Assembly: GCA_951406725.2 (NCBI GenBank)
Contig: OX597828.1
Coordinates: 22,444,001-22,508,000, forward strand
From: Octopus vulgaris
Lineage: Eukaryota
Length of the DNA: 64,000 bases
Direction of reading: 5' to 3'
Of the stretch, positions 3,057-52,346 are shown piece by piece (positions within the stretch are counted from its first letter, which is position 1; the number at the start of each line of letters is the position of its first letter). Under the pieces are notes generated by a model that did no database searches, had not been told where the DNA came from, and was given only the letters and a program-made list of their open reading frames with translations. The translations under genes were made by a program, and so were the position numbers.

Positions 3057-3636
3057 ATGTCACTATAATTTATAACCATTCGAAAGAACGTTAAATAATT
3101 CCAGTTTCGCAGTAGGTCCGAAGAACATACAAAGATATAAATAATAGCATCTGGATTATTGGTTTGAAAAACCTTTTCGATTGAAGTTGAAGGCTACTTT
3201 TCACACACACAGCTACACACAGGCACAAATACAAACATACGCCGCGCACGCACACACGTACACAAACGCATACACACACATAAATTACCATCTCTCCATC
3301 TATATCTTTCTATATACATGTGTGTGTGTTTTTGTGAGTGTGTGTCCGCGCGTCTGTGTGTGTAGAGTAATCTCTTGACTATCGTGGATGTTACGTTCCA
3401 AAACTCCCCGCGATAAGTGAAAATTCCGCGAAGTAGAAACAGTTCTGTAATATATATGTTTCTTGATTATCTTTATAATTTGTATATATTTAACGTAAGG
3501 TGTACTAGCCATCTGAATGTTACTGATGCTTTTAGCCCCAGGCGATCAACGTCACCAGATGGACTTTAGACACAATCTCAGTGCCCTTGTGTTATTTGCA
3601 AAGGGAGGTCATCTTCCCTCGAAAACCAAAGTGCTA

Positions 3637-3681
3637 CATACGGACTATAGTTTCAAGGTAATTGCCTCTCGTCAACGCATG
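3637..3681 (-). ncRNA. Type I hammerhead ribozyme, second copy
   Basis: Reverse complement matches 4110-4154. Confidence 0.85.
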
Positions 3682-4109
3682 GTAAACACCGGTTTTCGAT
3701 GAAGGAGACCCCTTGCAAATAATATTTAACGTTTTTCACAGCAACCACTGTCACTGATTTAGAAAAACTGTCTGAAAGCAATAATAAATCTCTGAACGAG
3801 ATATAAACAGTAACCACTCGACAACGTAAGGTGTACTAGCCATCTGAATGTGGCTAGCCACTGGGGGTGGGGTGTTACTGATGCTTTTAGCCCCAGGCGA
3901 TCAACGTCACCAGATGGACTTTAGACACAATCTCAGTGCCCTTGTGTTATTTGCAAAGGGAGGTCATCCACCCTCGAAAAGCTAAGTGCTACATACGGAC
4001 TATAGTTTCAAGGTAATTGCCTCTCGTTCTAAATCAGTGACAGTGGTTGCTATGAAAAACGTTAAATATTATTTGCAAGGGGTCTCCTTCATCGAAAACC
4101 GGTGTTTAC

Positions 4110-4154
4110 CATGCGTTGACGAGAGGCAATTACCTTGAAACTATAGTCCGTATG
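4110..4154 (+). ncRNA. Type I hammerhead ribozyme (U3 core variant)
   Basis: catgcg-TTGACGA-gagg(caatta)cctt-GAAA-c(tata)-GTC-cgtatg; stems I and II pair; stem III is the palindrome actatagt. Confidence 0.85.
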
Positions 4155-5134
4155 TAGCACTTAGGTTTTCGAGGGAGGATGACCTCCCTTTGCAAATAAC
4201 ACAAGGGCACTGAGATTGTGTCTAAAGTCCATCTGGTGACGTTGATCGCCTGGGGCTAAAAGCATCAGTAACACCCCACCCCCAGTGGCTAGCCACATTC
4301 AGATGGCTAGTACACCTTACGTTGTCGAGCGGTTACTGTTTATATCTCGTTCAGAGATTTATTATTGCTTGTATATATTTTTTTAATTATAAATGCAAAA
4401 CAACAGCAAGGAGGAATCGACCAAAGCTTGCATAATAAACCGCGATAGGTGAACCGCGATATGGAGTGGAATTACTGTTTATATGTATACATATATATTG
4501 AAATGCTTTGTACTATATATAAAGATAACATAAAATAAATAGATAGTTTTAATTTCTAACATGCACCTGGACATCACAATTTGCAGTCAAGATGACATCG
4601 AGAAATACAGAAAATATTTTAGTGGCTAATTTTTTCTTATAACAAGTATAATATAACCATTGTGTTATTCATCTGATGTAGTGAGCAAAATTATATTGAG
4701 GAACAGAATGCTTCATATGTCCTCATAAAATAACGTAGAAATAGTAATTTATTATGTATTTAAAATAATATGCAATTATTGGCTATTCTTTATCTGAGGA
4801 CGATGGCCTCAATACTGCGGTCTTCTAAAATATCTCGTTAGTTAAATTCTTTCATGTATATAGAAATGAAGCCATAAAATTGTGGTATAGAATATTGCTC
4901 AATGGGAATGTACTGAACATCTATGTGTGTATGTATGCATGTATGTATGTGTGTGTATGTGTGTATGCGTGTATGTATGTTTATATGTATGCGTGTATGT
5001 ATGTATGTATGTATGTATGTATGTATGTATGTGTGTATTTATTATGTATGTATATGTATGCGTGTATGTATGAATGTATGTATGCGTGTATGTATGAATG
5101 TAGGTCTGTATGTATGTATGTATCTATCTAACTA

Positions 5135-6161: not shown

Positions 6162-6545
6162 CGAGGGGCGTTCAATAAGTAATGCCTCTAACCCACTTGC
6201 ATTTGTTTGATCTAGCTGAAAGTTTGCATGTGCAATTATTTATATCTCTATAGATTAAGTGAAAAATTACAGTTCTGAACTAATTGTAGTTTCTGATTTA
6301 CAGGTGTTTGAACTGAGTCAAGTGTGAAATGGAGCCTATTCAGTGTCGAGCAGTGATCCGGTTTTTGTATTTGAAAGGACGCACACCACGGGAGACTTTT
6401 GATGAAATGAATGTAACTTATGGTGATGATGCCCCATCATATGACCTTGTAAAACGCTGGCATCGTGAATTCAAACATGGTCGGAACTCTGTCGAAACAG
6501 CTCCCAGATCTGGTCGTCCCCCTTCTGCCATTGATGAGGCATATG
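6162..6545 (+). mobile_element. 5' part of a mariner transposon (TIR and transposase HTH domain, ORF from 6329)
   Basis: TA-cgaggggcgttcaataagt TIR; MEPIQCRAVIRFLYLKG...YGDDAPSYDLVKRWHREFKHGRNSVETAPRSGRP is a Mos1/SETMAR-type HTH. Confidence 0.85.
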
Positions 6546-6663
6546 ATGCCAGGAGCATTCTGCACACACACACGCACTCACATACACAGATACATACACA
6601 CGCACACATATGTCTGAGTGTGTAGATATATACATATATATATGTATATATATGTATGTATAT

Positions 6664-18067: not shown

Positions 18068-18105
18068 TCTTTAACGTTTCGAGCCTACGCTCTTCAACAG
18101 AAAGA
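18068..18105 (-). ncRNA. Minimal type I hammerhead in the PLE terminal repeat, variant core CUGUUGA
   Basis: tcttt-CTGTTGA-a-gagc(gtag)gctc-GAAA-c-GTT-aaaga. Confidence 0.75.
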
Positions 18106-18642: not shown

Positions 18643-20667
18643 TCATGTGGTGTAGTGAGGAGAAGAGGGGAGGGGGAGAAGAGGGGGAGAGAAGGGGAGG
18701 GGAAGAAGAGGGGGAGGAGAAGGGGGAGAGGAGAGGATGGGGGAGAAGGAAGGGGATGAGGGGGATGAAGGAGGAAAGAGGGAGAGGGGGAGAGAGAAGG
18801 GGAGAGAGGGAGTGAGGGAGCAGAGGGAAGGGGAAGAGGGAGGGAGAAAGAGGGAAGAAGGGAAGGGGAGTAGGGGTGAAAGGATGAAGGACTGAAGAAG
18901 TAGGGGTCGGGTGGAGAAAGGATAGGTGAGGAGGGGGGAGAGGGGGTTAGATGAGGAGGGGGGAGAGTTGAGACCAAATGGCGTATAAGAGCGAAGAGAG
19001 AAGATTAATTCCTGTTCACGGCGCAAACGGGAATCCGGATGGCCTCTGTGTAAGGACAAACCGAACACAGATAGGTGTTGCAAGGAGTGACCGGTGGAGC
19101 GGAAATGGCGTGAGACCGGTGTGTCGTTCGCAAGGTGGATGTCACGAAGGTGTTCCGCGAACCGGTCAGCCAAGCGGCGTCCCGTTTGTCCGATGTACAA
19201 GGAATTGCAGAGAGAGCAAGAGATGCAATAGATAATATTGCTGGAGGTGCAGGTGAAGGAGTGGATGATGGGATAGGGTCGATGGTGGGTGCTAGTGAGG
19301 CGGGTGGTGTTGGAGAGGTAAGGGCAAGTGCGGCAACGTGGGCGGGAGCAGGGGAACGAGCCGGGTTGGGAGGTAGGGTCAGGGAAGGAGCTATGGACCA
19401 AAAGGTCTCGAATGTTGTGGGCTCGTTTGAAAGAGGGGAGGGGTCGGTTAGGGAAGAGGTGTGAAGTGGACGGGTCGGACTGGAGATGACGGAAAGCTCG
19501 AAGAATGGTGCGTTGGAGACGTAGGGTCGTGGGGTGGTAAGTGAGGGGAAAAGGGAGGCGGGAGACTACAGGGCGGGTTCGGGGAGAGAGAGCAGATACA
19601 CGGTCCACGGACCGTGCTCTGGCAAGGGCGGTGTGGATAGTGGTGAGGGGGTATCCACGTAGGGTGAAGTGGTGAGCCATACGTTGAGACTGAGTCTCAA
19701 AGTCATGGTCGTCACTACAGAGCCTACGTAGACGGAGGAATTGGGAATAGGGGATGGAAAGCTTGGTGTGTTCTGGGTGGGAGGAAGAGAAGTTGAGGTA
19801 TGAGTGTGAGTCTGTGTGTTTGTAGTGAATGGAGGTGGTAAGAGTGGAGTGAAGAATGCTAACCGAAATGTCGAGGAAGGAGACAGAGGTGTTGGAGATA
19901 GTGGAAGTGAAGTGGAGGGCTGGATGGAAAGATTGGACGAAAGAGAGGAAGGAATCTAGATGTTCGCGGGAGAGTGAGGTGGCACCGATAATGTCGTCAA
20001 TATAACGACCATATAGTTCAGGAGTGGGACCAGTGAAATTAGAGAATATTTGGGCCTCAACATAGCCAACGAACAGGTTCGCATAGTTGGGGCCCATTCG
20101 CGTTCCCATGGCCACTCCCGAGACCTGATGGTAGAACTCGCCCGCGAACGAGAAGCAGTTCAGAGTAAGGACAAGTTCGGCCAGACGAATGAGTGTGGAG
20201 GTGTCAGGTACAGGGTTAGAGCGGAGGTCAAGAAAGTGTCGAAGGGCCTGCAGTCCTTCGTGGTGAGGGATAACAGTATAGAGGCTTTGGATGTCCATAG
20301 TAAAAAGGATTTTGGAGGAGCCGGGAGGAAAGGAGAAAGAGTTGAAAAGCCGGAGAGCATGGTTGGTATCGTGGATGTGGGAGGGAAGAGATGCCACTAG
20401 GGGGGCAAGGACACGGTCGAGGTATTTAGAGATGAGCTCCGTGGGGCAGTTACAGGCGGAGACGATGGGGCGGCCAGGGTTGTTGGGTTTGTGGATTTTG
20501 GGGAGGAAGTAAATGGTGGGGGTACGTGGGGTTCGCACAATTAGGTTGGATGCGGTGCGGGGGAGACGGGAGGACGAGATGAGGTCTTGGACAGTAGAGG
20601 ATACCGTCTGTTGGTAGCTACGTGTGGGGTTAGAGGGCAGAGGGGAATAGAAGGAGGTGTCATTGAG
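18643..20667 (-). CDS. PLE reverse transcriptase - Cys linker - GIY-YIG endonuclease (no start codon, 5' truncated)
   Basis: YFLPKIHK..GRPIVS, MDIQSLYT, QVSGVAMGTRMGP, RYIDD, SFLD, CSRPRCRTC, IIYCISC...LYIGQTGRRLADRFAEH, GLN; frame stays open 43 codons upstream of the called ORF start (LNDTSFY...). Confidence 0.95.
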   Translation of the reverse strand, partial: LNDTSFYSPLPSNPTRSYQQTVSSTVQDLISSSRLPRTASNLIVRTPRTPTIYFLPKIHKPNNPGRPIVSACNCPTELISKYLDRVLAPLVASLPSHIHDTNHALRLFNSFSFPPGSSKILFTMDIQSLYTVIPHHEGLQALRHFLDLRSNPVPDTSTLIRLAELVLTLNCFSFAGEFYHQVSGVAMGTRMGPNYANLFVGYVEAQIFSNFTGPTPELYGRYIDDIIGATSLSREHLDSFLSFVQSFHPALHFTSTISNTSVSFLDISVSILHSTLTTSIHYKHTDSHSYLNFSSSHPEHTKLSIPYSQFLRLRRLCSDDHDFETQSQRMAHHFTLRGYPLTTIHTALARARSVDRVSALSPRTRPVVSRLPFPLTYHPTTLRLQRTILRAFRHLQSDPSTSHLFPNRPLPSFKRAHNIRDLLVHSSFPDPTSQPGSFPCSRPRCRTCPYLSNTTRLTSTHHRPYPIIHSFTCTSSNIIYCISCSLCNSLYIGQTGRRLADRFAEHLRDIHLANDTPVSRHFRSTGHSLQHLSVFGLSLHRGHPDSRLRREQELIFSLRSYTPFGLNSPPSSSNPLSPLLTYPFSTRPLLLQSFILSPLLPFPSSLFLPPSSPSLCSLTPSLPFSLPLSLFPPSSPSSPSFSPILSSPPSPPPLLPLPFSPPLLPLPSSPHYTT

Positions 20668-30097: not shown

Positions 30098-30100
<3 letters not shown>

Positions 30101-30486
30101 TTATATATAAAAGTGAATTTGTGTGAGTGTCTGTCTCCTACGATTTAGATTCCTAACTACTCCCACATTTTGCGGTGCAGTTTAACCAAAACCGGGCATC
30201 TTATAGTCGTGATTCATATCGAGCCCTTCTGGGTATTAGCGCACGTCTACGATTTTAAAAATAATTTGCCATCATTTTTTTCCATTTTAATGCATTTTTT
30301 CGCTATTATATAAGGGAAGTAACTCTCTAAAAATGTCTACGATGTGTCAACGATTTTTAAAAAAATTACCATCATTTTTTTTCCATTTTTAATGCATTGT
30401 TTCGCTATTTTTTGGCTATAACTCTCTAAAAATGCTTTATAGTTATTTCCCTTACAAACCCGAGCAACGCCGGGCGATACTGCTAG
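30098..30486 (+). mobile_element. Non-autonomous Helitron
   Basis: TC start, 3' hairpin + CTAG, A^T insertion in (TA)n. Confidence 0.85.
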
Positions 30487-30732: not shown

Positions 30733-31795
30733 CAGGCTGGAGCAGAGAGAACGGATGTGTTTGAAATGGCTATCAGGCCAAAGGGGTACTCAGGTATTAT
30801 TCGGACAGTGGTGTCTTAGCAATATTTTTCAGATGAAACTATGGCTCTATGGAGGAGAGATCATCGCGTGTTTGCCTACGAGAGTTACGTGATGAGTTAC
30901 TAATCTGTCTCAGCAGTTCAGCGTGAGTTTCGCCGCTACTTTAACATTCACCGAGATCAAGCTGTTCCCACCTGTAACACAATAAACACAATCTTAGGTT
31001 GGATGAATGCACTAAGTACACGAAGTACATTATTGGCAGGTCAGATAGAAGCAATTTTTGAGACAACCGCATTTTGTTAATGAGTAACGAAGCTCAATTT
31101 CATCTCAATGGAATGGTGAATCAACAGAATTGTCGCTGAGCGCTTGAAGATCCGAGAGAACTGCACGAAAGACCACGGCACAGCCAAAAGTGTTGGTCTG
31201 GTCTGCTTTTGCAAAAGCTGCCGTCATTGGTCCTTACTATTTGAAGATAAAAATGGAAATGCTGTTACTGTGAAACTCAAGCGTTTCATCGAGATGATAA
31301 ACATCCTTTTGCTTGAATTACGACGAAAACATATGCCTATTTGCCGTGTGTAGTTTCAACAGAATGGGGCTACGACCCACGCAGCAAGAGCATCAATGGA
31401 TATTCTTCGCTCTCTCTTCGGTGACCGTCTCATTTCAAGGTTTGTTGACATTCATTGGACCCTCGCTCCCATGATTTGTCTGTGTGATTATTCCTTGTAT
31501 AGAAACCTCAAGGCTTGTGTGAATGCGCAGAAACCTCGTACTATGGACGATTTGAAGGAAGGTATTCGCGTAGAAGTTAGATCAAATCGACAGACCAAAG
31601 CTGGAGAGTGGAGACCAACTTCCAAGAACGCCTTCAGAAGTGCATCTATCAAAACGGACACCACATGATGGTTATTTTTTTTCCACACTTGCTAATTCAA
31701 TACAAACACATTGATGTCAATAAAGTTTGTTTGAAGCTAAAGTTAATGATTTTCTAAAGTTTTTCAAAAATGTCCGTCCGCTCTGCTCCACCCTG
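30733..31795 (+). mobile_element. Degenerate Tc1/mariner transposon (rosa/DD41D-like)
   Basis: TA flanks; TIRs caggctggagcagag / ctctgctccaccctg; VQREFRRYFNI, MSNEAQFHLNGMVNQQNCR, FQQNGATTH, FGDRLISR, CDYSLY..LK. Confidence 0.85.
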
Positions 31796-32503: not shown

Positions 32504-33107
32504 AACTTAGATAAACTTAGATATGTTTCGACCAAAGATTGGTCCAGGCCATGTCTAACTTAATAGCACCACCTGATAGGATTATTCGAATCCTGTTTAA
32601 GTCAAGTTTTGTTCAAGTAGTGAGTTCTTTTTGGGTGAGTTGTATCCAATTATGGGTGGCCTGTCTGGTATTCTTTCAAGGAATCTATCCAGACTCCGTT
32701 TAAAGTTGATGGGATCCTTTTCCTCTTTGATCTCCCTCGGGACAATGTTAAATAGGGCAGGGCCTGTTGAGGAAAAGAAATTATGCTGCAGTGTACATGT
32801 ACGTTGTGATCTTGAATTGGGCAGGGGACGTATGGCCCGTGGTCCCAGTCTTGGATGAACCTTGAAGCTAATGTTAAGGTCGTTTGGGCAAAGTTGGCGG
32901 TATATTCTCCACATCGTACAAATGATGTACCGCTCACGGCGACGCTGGAGGGAGTAAAGTTTCAAGGCTTTAAGGCGATTCCAATAATCGAGAGCAGCCA
33001 TGCCTTCGATTCGTTTAGTGAGTGCCCTCTGGGGTGACTCAATTCTGGAGATGTTTTGTCTTGTATGGGGAGACCACAGTGGGCAGCAGTATTCAAGGTG
33101 TGGCCGT
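32504..33107 (-). mobile_element. 5'-truncated CR1/L2-clade LINE (ORF2 C-terminus 32597-33107 open, short 3' UTR)
   Basis: [14 protein letters not shown]...[10 protein letters not shown]...[20 protein letters not shown]...GPALFN...FKRSLDRFL. Confidence 0.9.
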
Positions 33108-33148
33108 ATGTATATATATATATATATATGTATATATAGGTGTGGCCG

Positions 33149-33228
<80 letters not shown>

Positions 33229-33911
33229 AATATGACTGGGTGCGTGCGAGTGTATGTATAGTGTATACTTGTGAGAAATTATAAACTAATATATACGTTT
33301 ACATATACGGGTGTGTGTGTTTAAGCGCTCACTCAGCGGATGACGTCAGTCTCTATAATCCGATTCCGATGTCTGAGCTCTTATCTCAATATCCATCATG
33401 GATGTCCTTAGAATAACTATACATTCTCTCTGCTGCTTTTTTACACGGGCTCACAGACATAAACTAAATAAGATAGCAGCTTGAGAACTTTGAGAGATTT
33501 GACCACATAGCTCTGAGAATATCCGTTTACTTATTTATTTTATGTTTACAAAATCAATAGCTTTATATATATATATATATTTCACTTTGTCATCATGTGA
33601 GATGACGAATAGGTCATGTAGTTTTACATTGCCTTTGATACGGGCTTAAGATTTCACTTAATGTTGGTGGAGTTATCCTTATAGTATCATCTAAGAATGC
33701 ATCAATAATATGCTAGTGAAACAGCTGTAATAAAGCCTGCTTCTGCCGTTCCTGCATAATTTCGTCACACCTGGAAACAACACTGGGTTGTATTTACGGT
33801 TTATATATTATATATCAAACACATACACTTACACACATATACGCGAACACACAGAAACACACATATATATATGTGTGTGTGTGTGATATAAATATATATA
33901 TATATATATAT

Positions 33912-49184: not shown

Positions 49185-50734
49185 GATATTTTAAAAGGAT
49201 TGACGTAACACTTCACACAAAGAACGAGACAATACGAAGAGCGCGACGCGATTGCAATAGATATTTTATAGGTTGAACGATATTTCGACAGCAAGCCTGT
49301 ATTTGTCGAGTTCAAAATAAAATAAAAAGTGATAAAAATTCAAATCTAAAATATGAAAGACAGCTACCGGTAATTTTCATGTAACAGCGAAATTTTGGTG
49401 CCAGTTAATCACTCTAGGAATTCTGTCACATATTGTACTTTGTTTGCTAAAATTATGCGTGAAAGTTCGACTTTCCTTGTTAATTTTCGCTGTTTCATTT
49501 GCAATTTCCTTTAATCGTGATTCACTGTAACCGCGTTTGATATAACGGTGTACAAAAGCATTTTCAGGATTACGGTAATCCCCTGTGTCAGTACAAATCC
49601 GTTTTATCTTCTAGAATTGGGATTTCGGATTTGACCGAATTATATGATGTGCATGATCAGAGGAGAGGTAAAAGTGGGATGACGTGGGCTTGCAAAATAT
49701 CTCTGTTGCTATTCTGCCTCCGGAAAACTTAACCTTTGTGTCCAAAAATTCAACGTTAGTTTTTCGAAAAATAGACGTAAGTTTTATGTTAGACTTAGTT
49801 TTTGGAATAACATTTTTTAGCATAATGTTCACAGGAATGCAAAAAGTCAATTAAACTATCATGTGACCCTTCCCAGAGAATAAAAGACGTCATGAATGAA
49901 CCGTAACCAGAGTATTGGTTCACGACTATGTAAGGATTTGAATGTCAGCATTTCTTCATGTAGACATTAGCAAATTTTACTGCCATAGGGGTAACCATGG
50001 TGCAACCCTTCGTCTAGTGGTATGAATCTGACCAGGTCAGATTCATACGCCAGGGCAAAAAGGCCAAAATCATATTCGCCAGTCTGGTGGTAAAATCTTT
50101 GTCTAAAGTTCATTGTTACTTTGTAACACAAACCTTAATTATCTACAGAGAAAATTTGATGGAATACTTTTGTTTGACCGATTTTCGAAGGCAGTCACAC
50201 TTCTATCCCTTGCACGCTTCTACCCCTTCAACGTGGTCGATATTAGAATATAAAGAAGAAACTTCCATGGTTACTAAAACAGAGTTTTCGATATGGCTTC
50301 GGTATTAAAAAAGTTGATCTTTGACACAAAATCAAAAGAATCCCGAATATAGGAACTATATATATTTCTGCGGCAGGGAGTAGAAAGCCACCCAACCATT
50401 CTGAAAATCTTGGCTGTACAATATTCATATCCGCTGCAAATTGGGTGCATTAGAAGAAATTTTTCGAACGTTTTGTGTATTTTTGGTAGACCATAAAATA
50501 AAGGTGCTCTTCTTCCTGACCGTAAAATCCTCGATTCGGCCGTATCAATAAAATTGTTTTCCTCCATTTCCAGAATTATTTTGTCAAGCTTGGGTTTGGA
50601 TCAACAGGTAATTCTTGCTATGAAGTGTTGTCACTTAAAAGTCCTTCACAAGCCGAAATATACTCACTTTTGTACATAATTGCGATCGTACCTCTCTTAT
50701 CCGCCATTTTAATAACAATAAAATCGTTTATTAT

Positions 50735-51011
50735 TTACATTAGCAGAATATTTGTCCTCATGTTTTTTGTTGTTAATACAACGTTTCGGCTGATACCCTC
50801 CAGCCTTCATCAGGGGTCTTGGGGAAATTTCGAACCTGATTTCTCATTCCTATGGTATTTTTCTATATTATTATTATTATTATTATCATTATTCTTATTA
50901 TTATTATAATTATTCAGGTCACTGTCTGGAATCGAACTCAGAATGTTGGGGTTAGTAGCCCGCGATCTTAACCACTACACCAAATGTCCACGGGCATATG
51001 GCGTAGTAGTT
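50735..51011 (-). mobile_element. tRNA-headed element with (AAT)n linker and hammerhead, nested in the old PLE
   Basis: tRNA-like head 50917-50989 (tggtgtagtggtt A box, gagttcgattcc B box); HHR at 50776-50817. Confidence 0.75.
50776..50817 (-). ncRNA. Minimal type I hammerhead, intact core, decayed stem I
   Basis: CTGATGA-a-ggctg(gagggtat)cagcc-GAAA-c-GTT. Confidence 0.75.
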
Positions 51012-52346
51012 CACTAGACGTCGTTGTTAACTAGACGTCGGAGTGCGTATCGCTGGGAATTTGTGAGGTTATTCCAGCACTTCTTTCGACTTGTTTTAAG
51101 GCTTTCCATAATGCCTGTCTGACAAGATTCAAGAAATTCCAATAGTACTTGTGAACATAAATCCCGAACTTTATCTGAATACCAATTGAGATTCTTTTCA
51201 GTCCACTTATGCCAGATTCGATCATCATCATTTTTATTTTCAGTAAGCATAGTGTTTTCTGACTCCTCGTTACTAGTCTTTTCAAAAAAAAAAATTCCTT
51301 CAGCTAGTGACGGCAGACAAACTGAAATAACCCTTGAGCTAGGTTATTCTTGTCGAAATTCTTAGTGATTGGGCAGAAACTCATTCCAACCTCCAAGACT
51401 GAGAAATCGTCGATTGAAAGTTGTAGTTAAGATAAATTTACGACCGCCTCATTCTCTAGCATGATGGATTTTCTTGGGCGAGTAGTTTTTAGAGTAGATA
51501 CCTTTTGGACTTTACTCGAAATTTTCACTTAAAACATGACTACCTATTGTGTAATAAAATTTGTTCTGAATGTTCTTGTGAGAAGTCATAATGATTAGTC
51601 CTATTTTTAGGAGTAATCCATTTCTGGGTGGGTGATAGAAAGTGAGTGACTTCTGTGATTTCCGTAGGTATTTGAAAAACCTTTACTTTATTGTTTTCAA
51701 GGCAAAATCTTAAATGTGCTCGCATTCTTGATTGATCAAATAAAAACTTCTCTGGAGTATTTCCAATTACCAGGTCAGATTCATACGCCAGGGCAAAAAG
51801 GCCAAATTCATATTCGCCAGCTTGGGGATTAGTAATATGAACTTGTTGAACTGTAGAATTATGTGTGTCTGTGGTGAGTACAGCATTGTTATTTGTGTTA
51901 TTAGTACCTATGCTGCAGTCAAGTTCAAACTGTCATAAATATGAACATCTCCGAAAAGAATTGGTCGACATAACAAAATGAGGAGAAACAGGTTTTCGGG
52001 TAACATCACGTCCTGGAGGAATGAATAAAAGTGACTGGAGAATTTCATCAAATTTACACAAAACTGCTTGATTAAATATTTTTCTTCTTTTTCGTTTTCT
52101 TCTTTTCCCTTTTCTTCTTTCTTTCCTTTTCTTCTCTCATATTTTCTGACTTTTTTCTTTTCGGCAGTTGTAAAACTGAAACTTAAAGAGCGATGATGCC
52201 ATTCCATGAATGTGGATGCTGGTTGCTCTCGTTCATATTTTAGTTTTGAATTTTCATAATTTTGAATTTTTATCGCCTTTTACTTTGAACACAACAAAGA
52301 CAGGCTTGCTGCCGAAATATCGTTCTACTACTACTACTACTACTAC

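Follow-up and report, generated by a model that had tools for sequence, protein, structure and literature searches.

Animal non-LTR retrozymes are small hammerhead repeats whose circular RNAs are abundant in mussel, coral, and axolotl, and Penelope elements have been proposed as their drivers (PMC7229834). Li, Clavereau and Pollet, in a 2026 report that links retrozymes to pLTRs by phylogeny, argue that animal retrozymes are non-autonomous Penelope derivatives (10.64898/2026.07.22.740005), which makes the choice between a retrozyme and a derivative of a Penelope pLTR a false one. The published hypothesis of Penelope-driven retrozymes rests on co-occurrence and pLTR phylogeny. Insertions of Penelope-like elements are described as partial tandems with an inverted, 5′-truncated arm, a 30- to 40-bp tail at one end, and duplications of 8 to 10 bp (PMC8557442, PMC3846280). 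For a lizard Penelope element assayed in vitro, the tail lies between two internal reverse transcription start sites, both strands are cleaved in AT-rich DNA and use the two start sites alike, and ribozyme cleavage is dispensable (PMC11167929).

Here we analyze a 64,000-nt stretch of the Octopus vulgaris genome (the window) that carries a short hammerhead repeat, together with the other copies of this repeat in the genome. Like the animal non-LTR retrozymes described (PMC7229834; 10.64898/2026.07.22.740005), which are non-coding tandem repeats of 170 to 400 nt with a GC content below 50%, a type I hammerhead, a highly paired monomer, a target duplication of more than 4 bp, and Penelope-like elements in the same genome, the octopus unit measures 355 nt with a GC content of 0.44, and its duplication is 12 bp long at the locus in the window and 10 to 15 bp in the family. 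Reported retrozyme units are 350 to 390 bp long in mussel and 330 or 350 nt in axolotl (PMC7229834). Unlike these animal retrozymes as described, the octopus copies are short, consist of two arms with two fixed end points, and have a C3U core; in addition, no related pLTR was found in 62 Penelope-like loci, compared to 24 of 57 families in Xenopus (10.64898/2026.07.22.740005). We found no account of a two-ended footprint in the main texts that we searched: that of PMC7229834 does not contain the word "inverted", and in the main text of Li et al. (10.64898/2026.07.22.740005) "tail" is absent and "inverted" appears only in the title of a reference. Among the titles listed, none concerns a cephalopod retrozyme, although supplements may hold cephalopod or inverted examples. 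The initial annotation had called the repeat retrozyme-like, and the copies that we examined agree with this, being non-coding hammerhead repeats with the sequence properties of retrozymes and without a Penelope ORF. We therefore classify the family as an animal non-LTR retrozyme and a non-autonomous Penelope derivative, a known kind of element, with cleavage and circles as predictions.

The insertion at 3492–4368 and its hammerhead

The insert at 3492–4368 is 877 bp long, has no ORF, and is flanked by a 12-bp target-site duplication (3480–3491 and 4369–4380) whose 12-mer occurs at these two places and nowhere else in the window on either strand. No frame of 100 amino acids overlaps the insert, and when the unit is treated as circular, its longest ATG ORF encodes 45 amino acids. 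The insert interrupts a repeat with a left half at 3363–3491 and a right half at 4381–4478 (86 to 91% identity with the best 39 other matches of 1001 first-look candidates), which we take to be a MITE with a TA target, as its observed terminal inverted repeats suggest. In 13 of 14 paralogues of this repeat the two halves are joined over a single site resembling the 12-mer, and the target duplication is therefore real. The initial annotation had proposed the duplication on both sides, the split MITE, and the lack of a meaningful ORF, and all three hold.

Numbering unit positions from the ribozyme cut site, arm A (3492–4027, minus strand; 536 nt, 1.5 units) has its 3′ end at unit position 175, which we call site A (window position 3492), and its 5′ end at unit position 326. 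Arm B (4028–4370, plus strand; 343 nt) starts at unit position 234 and ends around 220 to 222, site B; its final 2 nt, up to 4370, fit the target duplication as well. The head-to-tail copies annotated at 3492–3822 (331 nt) and 3823–4027 (partial) are both present in arm A. The unit had been put at about 355 bp, and the true period is indeed 355 nt: the outermost copy is 24 nt short, a deletion marked by a 3-nt repeat at 3518–3520 (minus strand). One natural monomer, from cut site to cut site, spans 3643–3997 (minus strand). The inverted copy is 99% identical and, as annotated, begins at a different point of the unit. In ribozyme sense the two arms are head-to-head, which corrects the earlier description, and arm mapping places the junction of their 5′ ends at 4027/4028 with a 1-nt overlap. 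The segment between sites A and B, defined by mapping the ends of the family, is a 47-nt "tail" (4324–4370, plus strand). The units at this locus differ from the family majority by six substitutions and the deletion (∼0.7%), compared to a divergence of 4.3% between insertions, and the insertion is therefore young within the family, as the annotation had suggested, and younger than the MITE.

The type I hammerhead of arm B lies at 4110–4154 (plus strand). Helix I has 6 bp (4110–4115 with 4149–4154) and is followed by the C3U variant core UUGACGA (4116–4122), a 4-bp helix II (4123–4126 with 4133–4136), GAAA (4137–4140), and a palindromic helix III (4141–4146); the core spans 4116–4148, and cleavage is predicted after 4148, at the end of GUC. 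Arm A carries one complete motif (3637–3681, minus strand; core 3675–3643, predicted cut between 3643 and 3642) and a second one (3992–4027, minus strand) that, in the alignment, is cut off by the arm junction inside the UUGACGA box. With a helix I of about 6 bp, a helix II of 4 bp, and a short palindromic helix III, the motif matches the canonical type I layout of metazoans, a form that acts as a dimer, and differs from the Penelope minimal motif, in which helix II has 7 to 8 bp (PMC4209133). Searching the 64,000-nt window against Rfam at gathering scores gave no match; the basis of the hammerhead call is thus the motif, its fold, and covariation.

The long outer helix that had been annotated as extending helix I (4069–4199, plus strand; 4069–4082 pairs with 4186–4199, and 4092–4100 with 4164–4172) is borne out by the fold and by compensatory pairs. 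The 151 nt at 4055–4205 fold as described at −57 kcal/mol (z = −6.85, equaled by none of 200 shuffles), the whole of arm B gives a z score of −4.70, and the 355-nt monomer folded as a circle gives −3.9 (25 shuffles). In the minimum-energy folds of the 151 nt and of the whole arm, the hammerhead core and helix III are left open. An alignment of 14 natural monomers, which represent only four lineages, has double changes at 26 of the 73 predicted pairs, and many of these lie in the outer helix. The helix III segment varies among the four families with its self-complementarity kept; its intermolecular duplex is worth −7 to −11 kcal/mol, and closing it within one copy costs 1.9 kcal/mol. Li et al. 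(10.64898/2026.07.22.740005) call "active" two consecutive units with complete hammerheads and report that eight of nine predicted Xenopus retrozymes lacked cleavage in vitro. Such a pair is absent from the locus, where arm A has one full and one truncated motif and arm B has one, and in other copies of the family six distinct cut-to-cut monomers carry both complete hammerheads. Pol III A and B boxes were not found at zero mismatches in four monomers.

Outer ends of the arms across the family

Exact probes taken from the unit gave 223, 416, and 291 matches in the genome, and a DNA search with the unit gave 3300 first-look candidates; the 355-nt family comprises several hundred copies. From 150 loci we retained 64 distinct insertions. 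Entries whose end coordinates were alike had been merged, a step that possibly fused a few separate insertions. Among the 100 arm 3′ ends of these insertions, 44 fall at unit positions 168 to 178 (site A) and 41 at 216 to 225 (site B), so that 85 of 100 lie in windows covering 5.9% of the unit (binomial P = 4 × 10⁻⁸⁸). The initial annotation had expected a genome-wide search to reveal variable permutation points; this was not borne out, since the outer ends cluster at the two sites ∼175 and 220 nt past the cut. The 5′ ends of the arms, on the other hand, are not distinguishable from a uniform distribution (Kolmogorov-Smirnov P = 0.08).

Thirty-six of the 64 insertions are two-armed, and in all 36 the arms are head-to-head, with their 5′ ends joined by short overlaps. 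One arm ends at A and the other at B in 24 of the 27 two-armed insertions that could be classified (P = 2.5 × 10⁻⁵; two are B+B and one is A+A); the first query favored B ends, and loci found by the pattern only, which were checked separately, were A+B in nine of nine cases. The locus in the window has the typical A+B form and is an ordinary member of a family of hundreds. B arms run past site A, with 1 of 24 stopping within positions 170 to 185 and 21 of 24 extending more than 20 nt beyond. A duplication of at least 10 bp flanks 23 of 24 A+B insertions. Counting only nonsimple duplications of 10 to 15 bp, they are found in 16 of 36 two-armed copies compared to 1 of 1260 controls with mismatched flanks; only 6 of 28 one-armed copies have any. 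The flanks of the insertions are 88% AT, compared to 65% for the window.

A degenerate pattern of the core matched the genome 952 times, and a reversed control gave no match. The matches fall into at least four families with units of 353 to 360 nt that are 59 to 82% identical, the 355-nt family and three sisters. In the three sister families the unit length and both end sites are kept, and most targets are (AT)n. Arrays reach about three units in the 355-nt family, most arms of which have fewer than two, and 5.6 units in a sister family (L188).

Copies spaced 1.4 to 13 kb apart were considered as candidate full elements and rejected, as they are segmental duplications. Segmental or inverted duplication of host DNA has multiplied copies at L004 and L012 (G000:C2:152.13 and 152.39 Mb), L094–L095, L093, and L096–L097, and among these duplicated regions is a large inverted repeat centered on a two-armed insertion. 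An all-versus-all comparison of the flanks of 47 loci found six matches in four locus pairs beside arm ends, which we read as duplicates or host repeats, putatively so for the pair L036/L041.

One two-armed insertion has been amplified by another repeat. This 400-bp non-autonomous repeat (L222:1230–1635, L230, L235, L208, L216, L221, L231, and L233) carries a tiny retrozyme piece, an inverted B arm of ∼22 nt and an A arm of ∼65 nt, between an 11-bp duplication. A motif that matches the genome 11,283 times has this repeat at 8 of its first 30 loci. From its 5′ TC, its 3′ hairpin and CTAG, and its target between A and T, which are Helitron hallmarks, we take it to be Helitron-like. The copy in the window (30099–30486) is without the retrozyme piece and has an internal 101-bp repeat of its own. 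Short frames elsewhere in the window, at 6317–6625 (plus strand), 31354–31668 (plus strand), and 32597–33298 (minus strand), resemble what are presumably pieces of mariner-type transposases and of a LINE reverse transcriptase.

Template RNA and candidate Penelope-type machinery

The initial annotation had proposed a circular or multimeric RNA as the template, and the arms agree with a template that has a joined cut site: of 100 arms, 72 run across a cut site, and of 163 arm 5′ ends, 1 maps no more than 3 nt from it, where 3.2 would be expected. Since arms read through the cut site and 5′ ends do not collect there, cleaved linear monomers were not the template, which is likely to have been a circle or an uncleaved multimer. 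In a sister family, 5′ ends at first seemed to accumulate at the cut site, but this effect came from the boundary of the reference sequence and disappeared with a repeated reference. As to which of the two templates was usual, a covalent circle and an uncleaved multimer seem to us about evenly balanced. In 53 of 60 cases a common variant is the same in every unit of an insertion, and both arms share rare variants at four loci in the 355-nt family and at one and three loci in two sister families. Within insertions of the 355-nt family, partial sharing patterns number 7 compared to 10 that are fully shared. In only 9 of 24 cases is the divergence within an insertion lower than its divergence from the nearest other one. 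Variant sharing is not decisive because the same sharing would be seen between two RNAs of a single source, and we rejected it as proof of rolling-circle copying; L030 can be explained by a one-period local duplication. At L030:1424–2531, L018, and L188, rare variants are partly shared within an arm, which fits such a duplication or mixed templates. Part of the unit is contained in 20 of 24 rows of sequencing contigs from eight studies, with no RNA run among those listed; these contigs are uninformative on expression. Of four runs compared, X1 and X15 each have a contig that links the end of arm B to its start through the 12 missing letters; these contigs fit genomic tandems as well as circles and are uninformative on ends or strand.

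The inverted 5′-truncated arm, the two fixed 3′ ends with a short tail, and the AT-rich or (TA)n targets are all found in Penelope insertions, and, judged from sequence, the two fixed ends with the intervening segment are the Penelope "tail" footprint. As described for insertions of EN+ Penelope elements (Poseidon PAc, PMC11167929; Pen2a_Av, PMC3846280; PMC8557442), the octopus copies are partial tandems with an inverted 5′-truncated arm and an optional tail at one end, two internal starts lie downstream of the hammerhead, targets are AT rich or (TA)n, and the duplication falls in a range of 8 to 15 bp. Unlike these elements, the octopus unit has no reverse transcriptase or endonuclease frame, closes on itself, and has a canonical instead of a minimal hammerhead; its tail measures 41 to 48 nt compared to 30 to 40 in EN+ Penelope, and its A+B pairing is strict. 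Non-autonomous Chlamys elements such as MRC1, described in PMC8557442, are likewise Penelope derivatives, with pLTRs and multicopy head-to-tail insertions, but they belong to a green-algal clade, have 3′ ends that generally resemble those of an autonomous family, and for the most part lack hammerheads, whereas ours is an animal family with a hammerhead and with no partner found in 62 Penelope-like loci.

The initial annotation had set its reading against ordinary pLTRs with fixed ends attached to a Penelope ORF. The fixed ends proved to be there, whereas the attachment did not: with a probe from one clade and mostly 1.5-kb flanks, we found no Penelope ORF joined to any of the 64 insertions. 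Two Penelope pieces near insertions are separate, and the one at L090 terminates in a ribozyme-like end of its own. When Penelope-like loci were searched with a profile of the four families, matches were found at 0 of 30 GIY-YIG loci, at 0 of 20 from a second Penelope-like family, and at 1 of 12 with intact elements. We therefore consider the element non-autonomous, as no joined Penelope frame was found in the 64 insertions and no homologous pLTR in the 62 loci. The single match, a retrozyme copy beside an intact element (L309:1733–2047), was considered as a chimera and rejected, being a separate, older insertion 0.5 kb away; it is an old, diverged member of the retrozyme superfamily and possibly represents a fifth family.

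A candidate for the driver is a young coding Penelope-like family (L303–L314) with many open or intact 781-residue frames containing reverse transcriptase and GIY-YIG domains. Its copies have two ends ∼36 nt apart in (AT)n targets, with the tail present in 5 of 16. An upstream frame begins immediately behind the tail. Its repeat has a different hammerhead, a UUGAUAA variant, and no homology to the 355-nt unit. The tails of the two share a stem-loop and TTATTAT, a weak, post hoc likeness with shuffle P values of 0.017 to 0.046 in three related families and 0.8 in the fourth.

The window itself holds other Penelope-like sequences. At 18643–20667 (minus strand) an open 674-residue frame matches Pfam RVT_1 (E = 6 × 10⁻⁸), with a weak GIY-YIG match below the cutoff; this 5′-truncated element belongs to a different Penelope-like family, ends in (AT)n, and has a hammerhead-like motif near 18097 (minus strand). 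Fragments at 50274–51343 (minus strand) resemble an older Penelope-like family (150 scored matches, mostly 45 to 70% identity), with a hammerhead-like motif at 50813 (minus strand) between two pieces of the frame.

Proposed mechanism, alternative explanations, and significance

We consider it probable that the ORF-less 355-nt hammerhead repeat is mobilized in trans by a Penelope-like reverse transcriptase with a GIY-YIG endonuclease, which leaves two head-to-head arms. The hammerhead would cut multimeric transcripts, probably acting as a dimer that pairs through the palindromic helix III, and the products may be ligated into a rod-like circle. The endonuclease would make a 12- to 13-nt staggered cut in AT-rich DNA, one 3′-OH would prime at site A and the other at site B, both inside the RNA, and both cDNAs would run for a variable length through the cut-site junction before their far ends are joined by microhomology, producing the inverted arms and the duplication. 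More tentatively, a dimer of the Penelope-type reverse transcriptase may hold a small circular ribozyme RNA, prime both strands of a single staggered cut at the two structurally fixed sites 45 nt apart, always one site per strand, and then roll around the circle. Against mobilization in trans as a whole we count that no autonomous partner was found in the loci searched, that the tail likeness is weak, that Rfam gave no match, that the core is C3U and open in the folds, that most predicted Xenopus retrozymes did not cleave in vitro, that variant sharing does not single out a circle, that the four monomers have no Pol III boxes, and that in the lizard assay each strand used both start sites, with A+B pairing being the rule here.

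One step of this explanation has an alternative with the same element and enzymes that is quite possible, if short of probable: the template would be a multimeric transcript that comes from a source array and stays linear and uncleaved, or else several RNAs linked through template jumps, with no circle and with the hammerhead as a passenger. The in vitro lizard element dispenses with ribozyme cleavage (PMC11167929), most arms of the 355-nt family are shorter than two units, and the partial sharing or one-period duplication at L030, L018, and L188 indicates that multiunit arms can arise or grow without a circle. Against this, fixed 3′ ends combined with random 5′ truncation should shorten the arrays with each generation, yet arms reach 5.6 units; variants agree between units and between arms in the numbers given above; the rod that joins both ends of the monomer covaries across the four families; and the retrozymes of mussel, coral, and axolotl are abundant circles (PMC7229834).

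Two further readings concern the nature of the element. That the copies are 5′-truncated pLTR ends of an unsampled autonomous Penelope-like element would account for a footprint identical to that of Penelope insertions, and our flanks, mostly of 1.5 kb, and protein probe from one clade sampled part of the genome's Penelope diversity; we nevertheless regard it as unlikely, since in every multiunit arm the unit runs past site B into itself and not into an ORF, no Penelope frame is joined to any of the 64 insertions and the two Penelope pieces nearby are separate, and the hammerhead has canonical 6-bp and 4-bp helices and not the long helix II of the Penelope minimal motifs (PMC4209133). Mobilization by a LINE through classical twin priming, or a foldback or satellite rearrangement of the DNA, is largely refuted and seems to us very improbable. 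LINE frames are common in this genome, and an inverted arm with a 10- to 15-bp duplication would fit LINE twin priming too, but the unit has no poly(A) or simple-repeat tail of its own, its internal primer site is fixed and not variable, and B arms do not stop at site A as they would in classical twin priming. Satellite growth or foldback repair, for its part, is a poor fit with dispersed copies that have individual duplications and two fixed ends.

If the reading of a reverse transcriptase dimer that primes both strands on a circle is correct, the A+B rule across four families that are 59 to 82% identical would be direct genomic evidence for the movement of animal retrozymes and would reflect a coordinated two-site step of Penelope integration that the in vitro system does not resolve. 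To the hypothesis that Penelope elements mobilize retrozymes, the octopus copies add a footprint of two fixed starts, one per strand, and a 10- to 15-bp duplication, and the family offers a 355-nt substrate with predicted start positions on which Penelope-type proteins may be tested in vitro.
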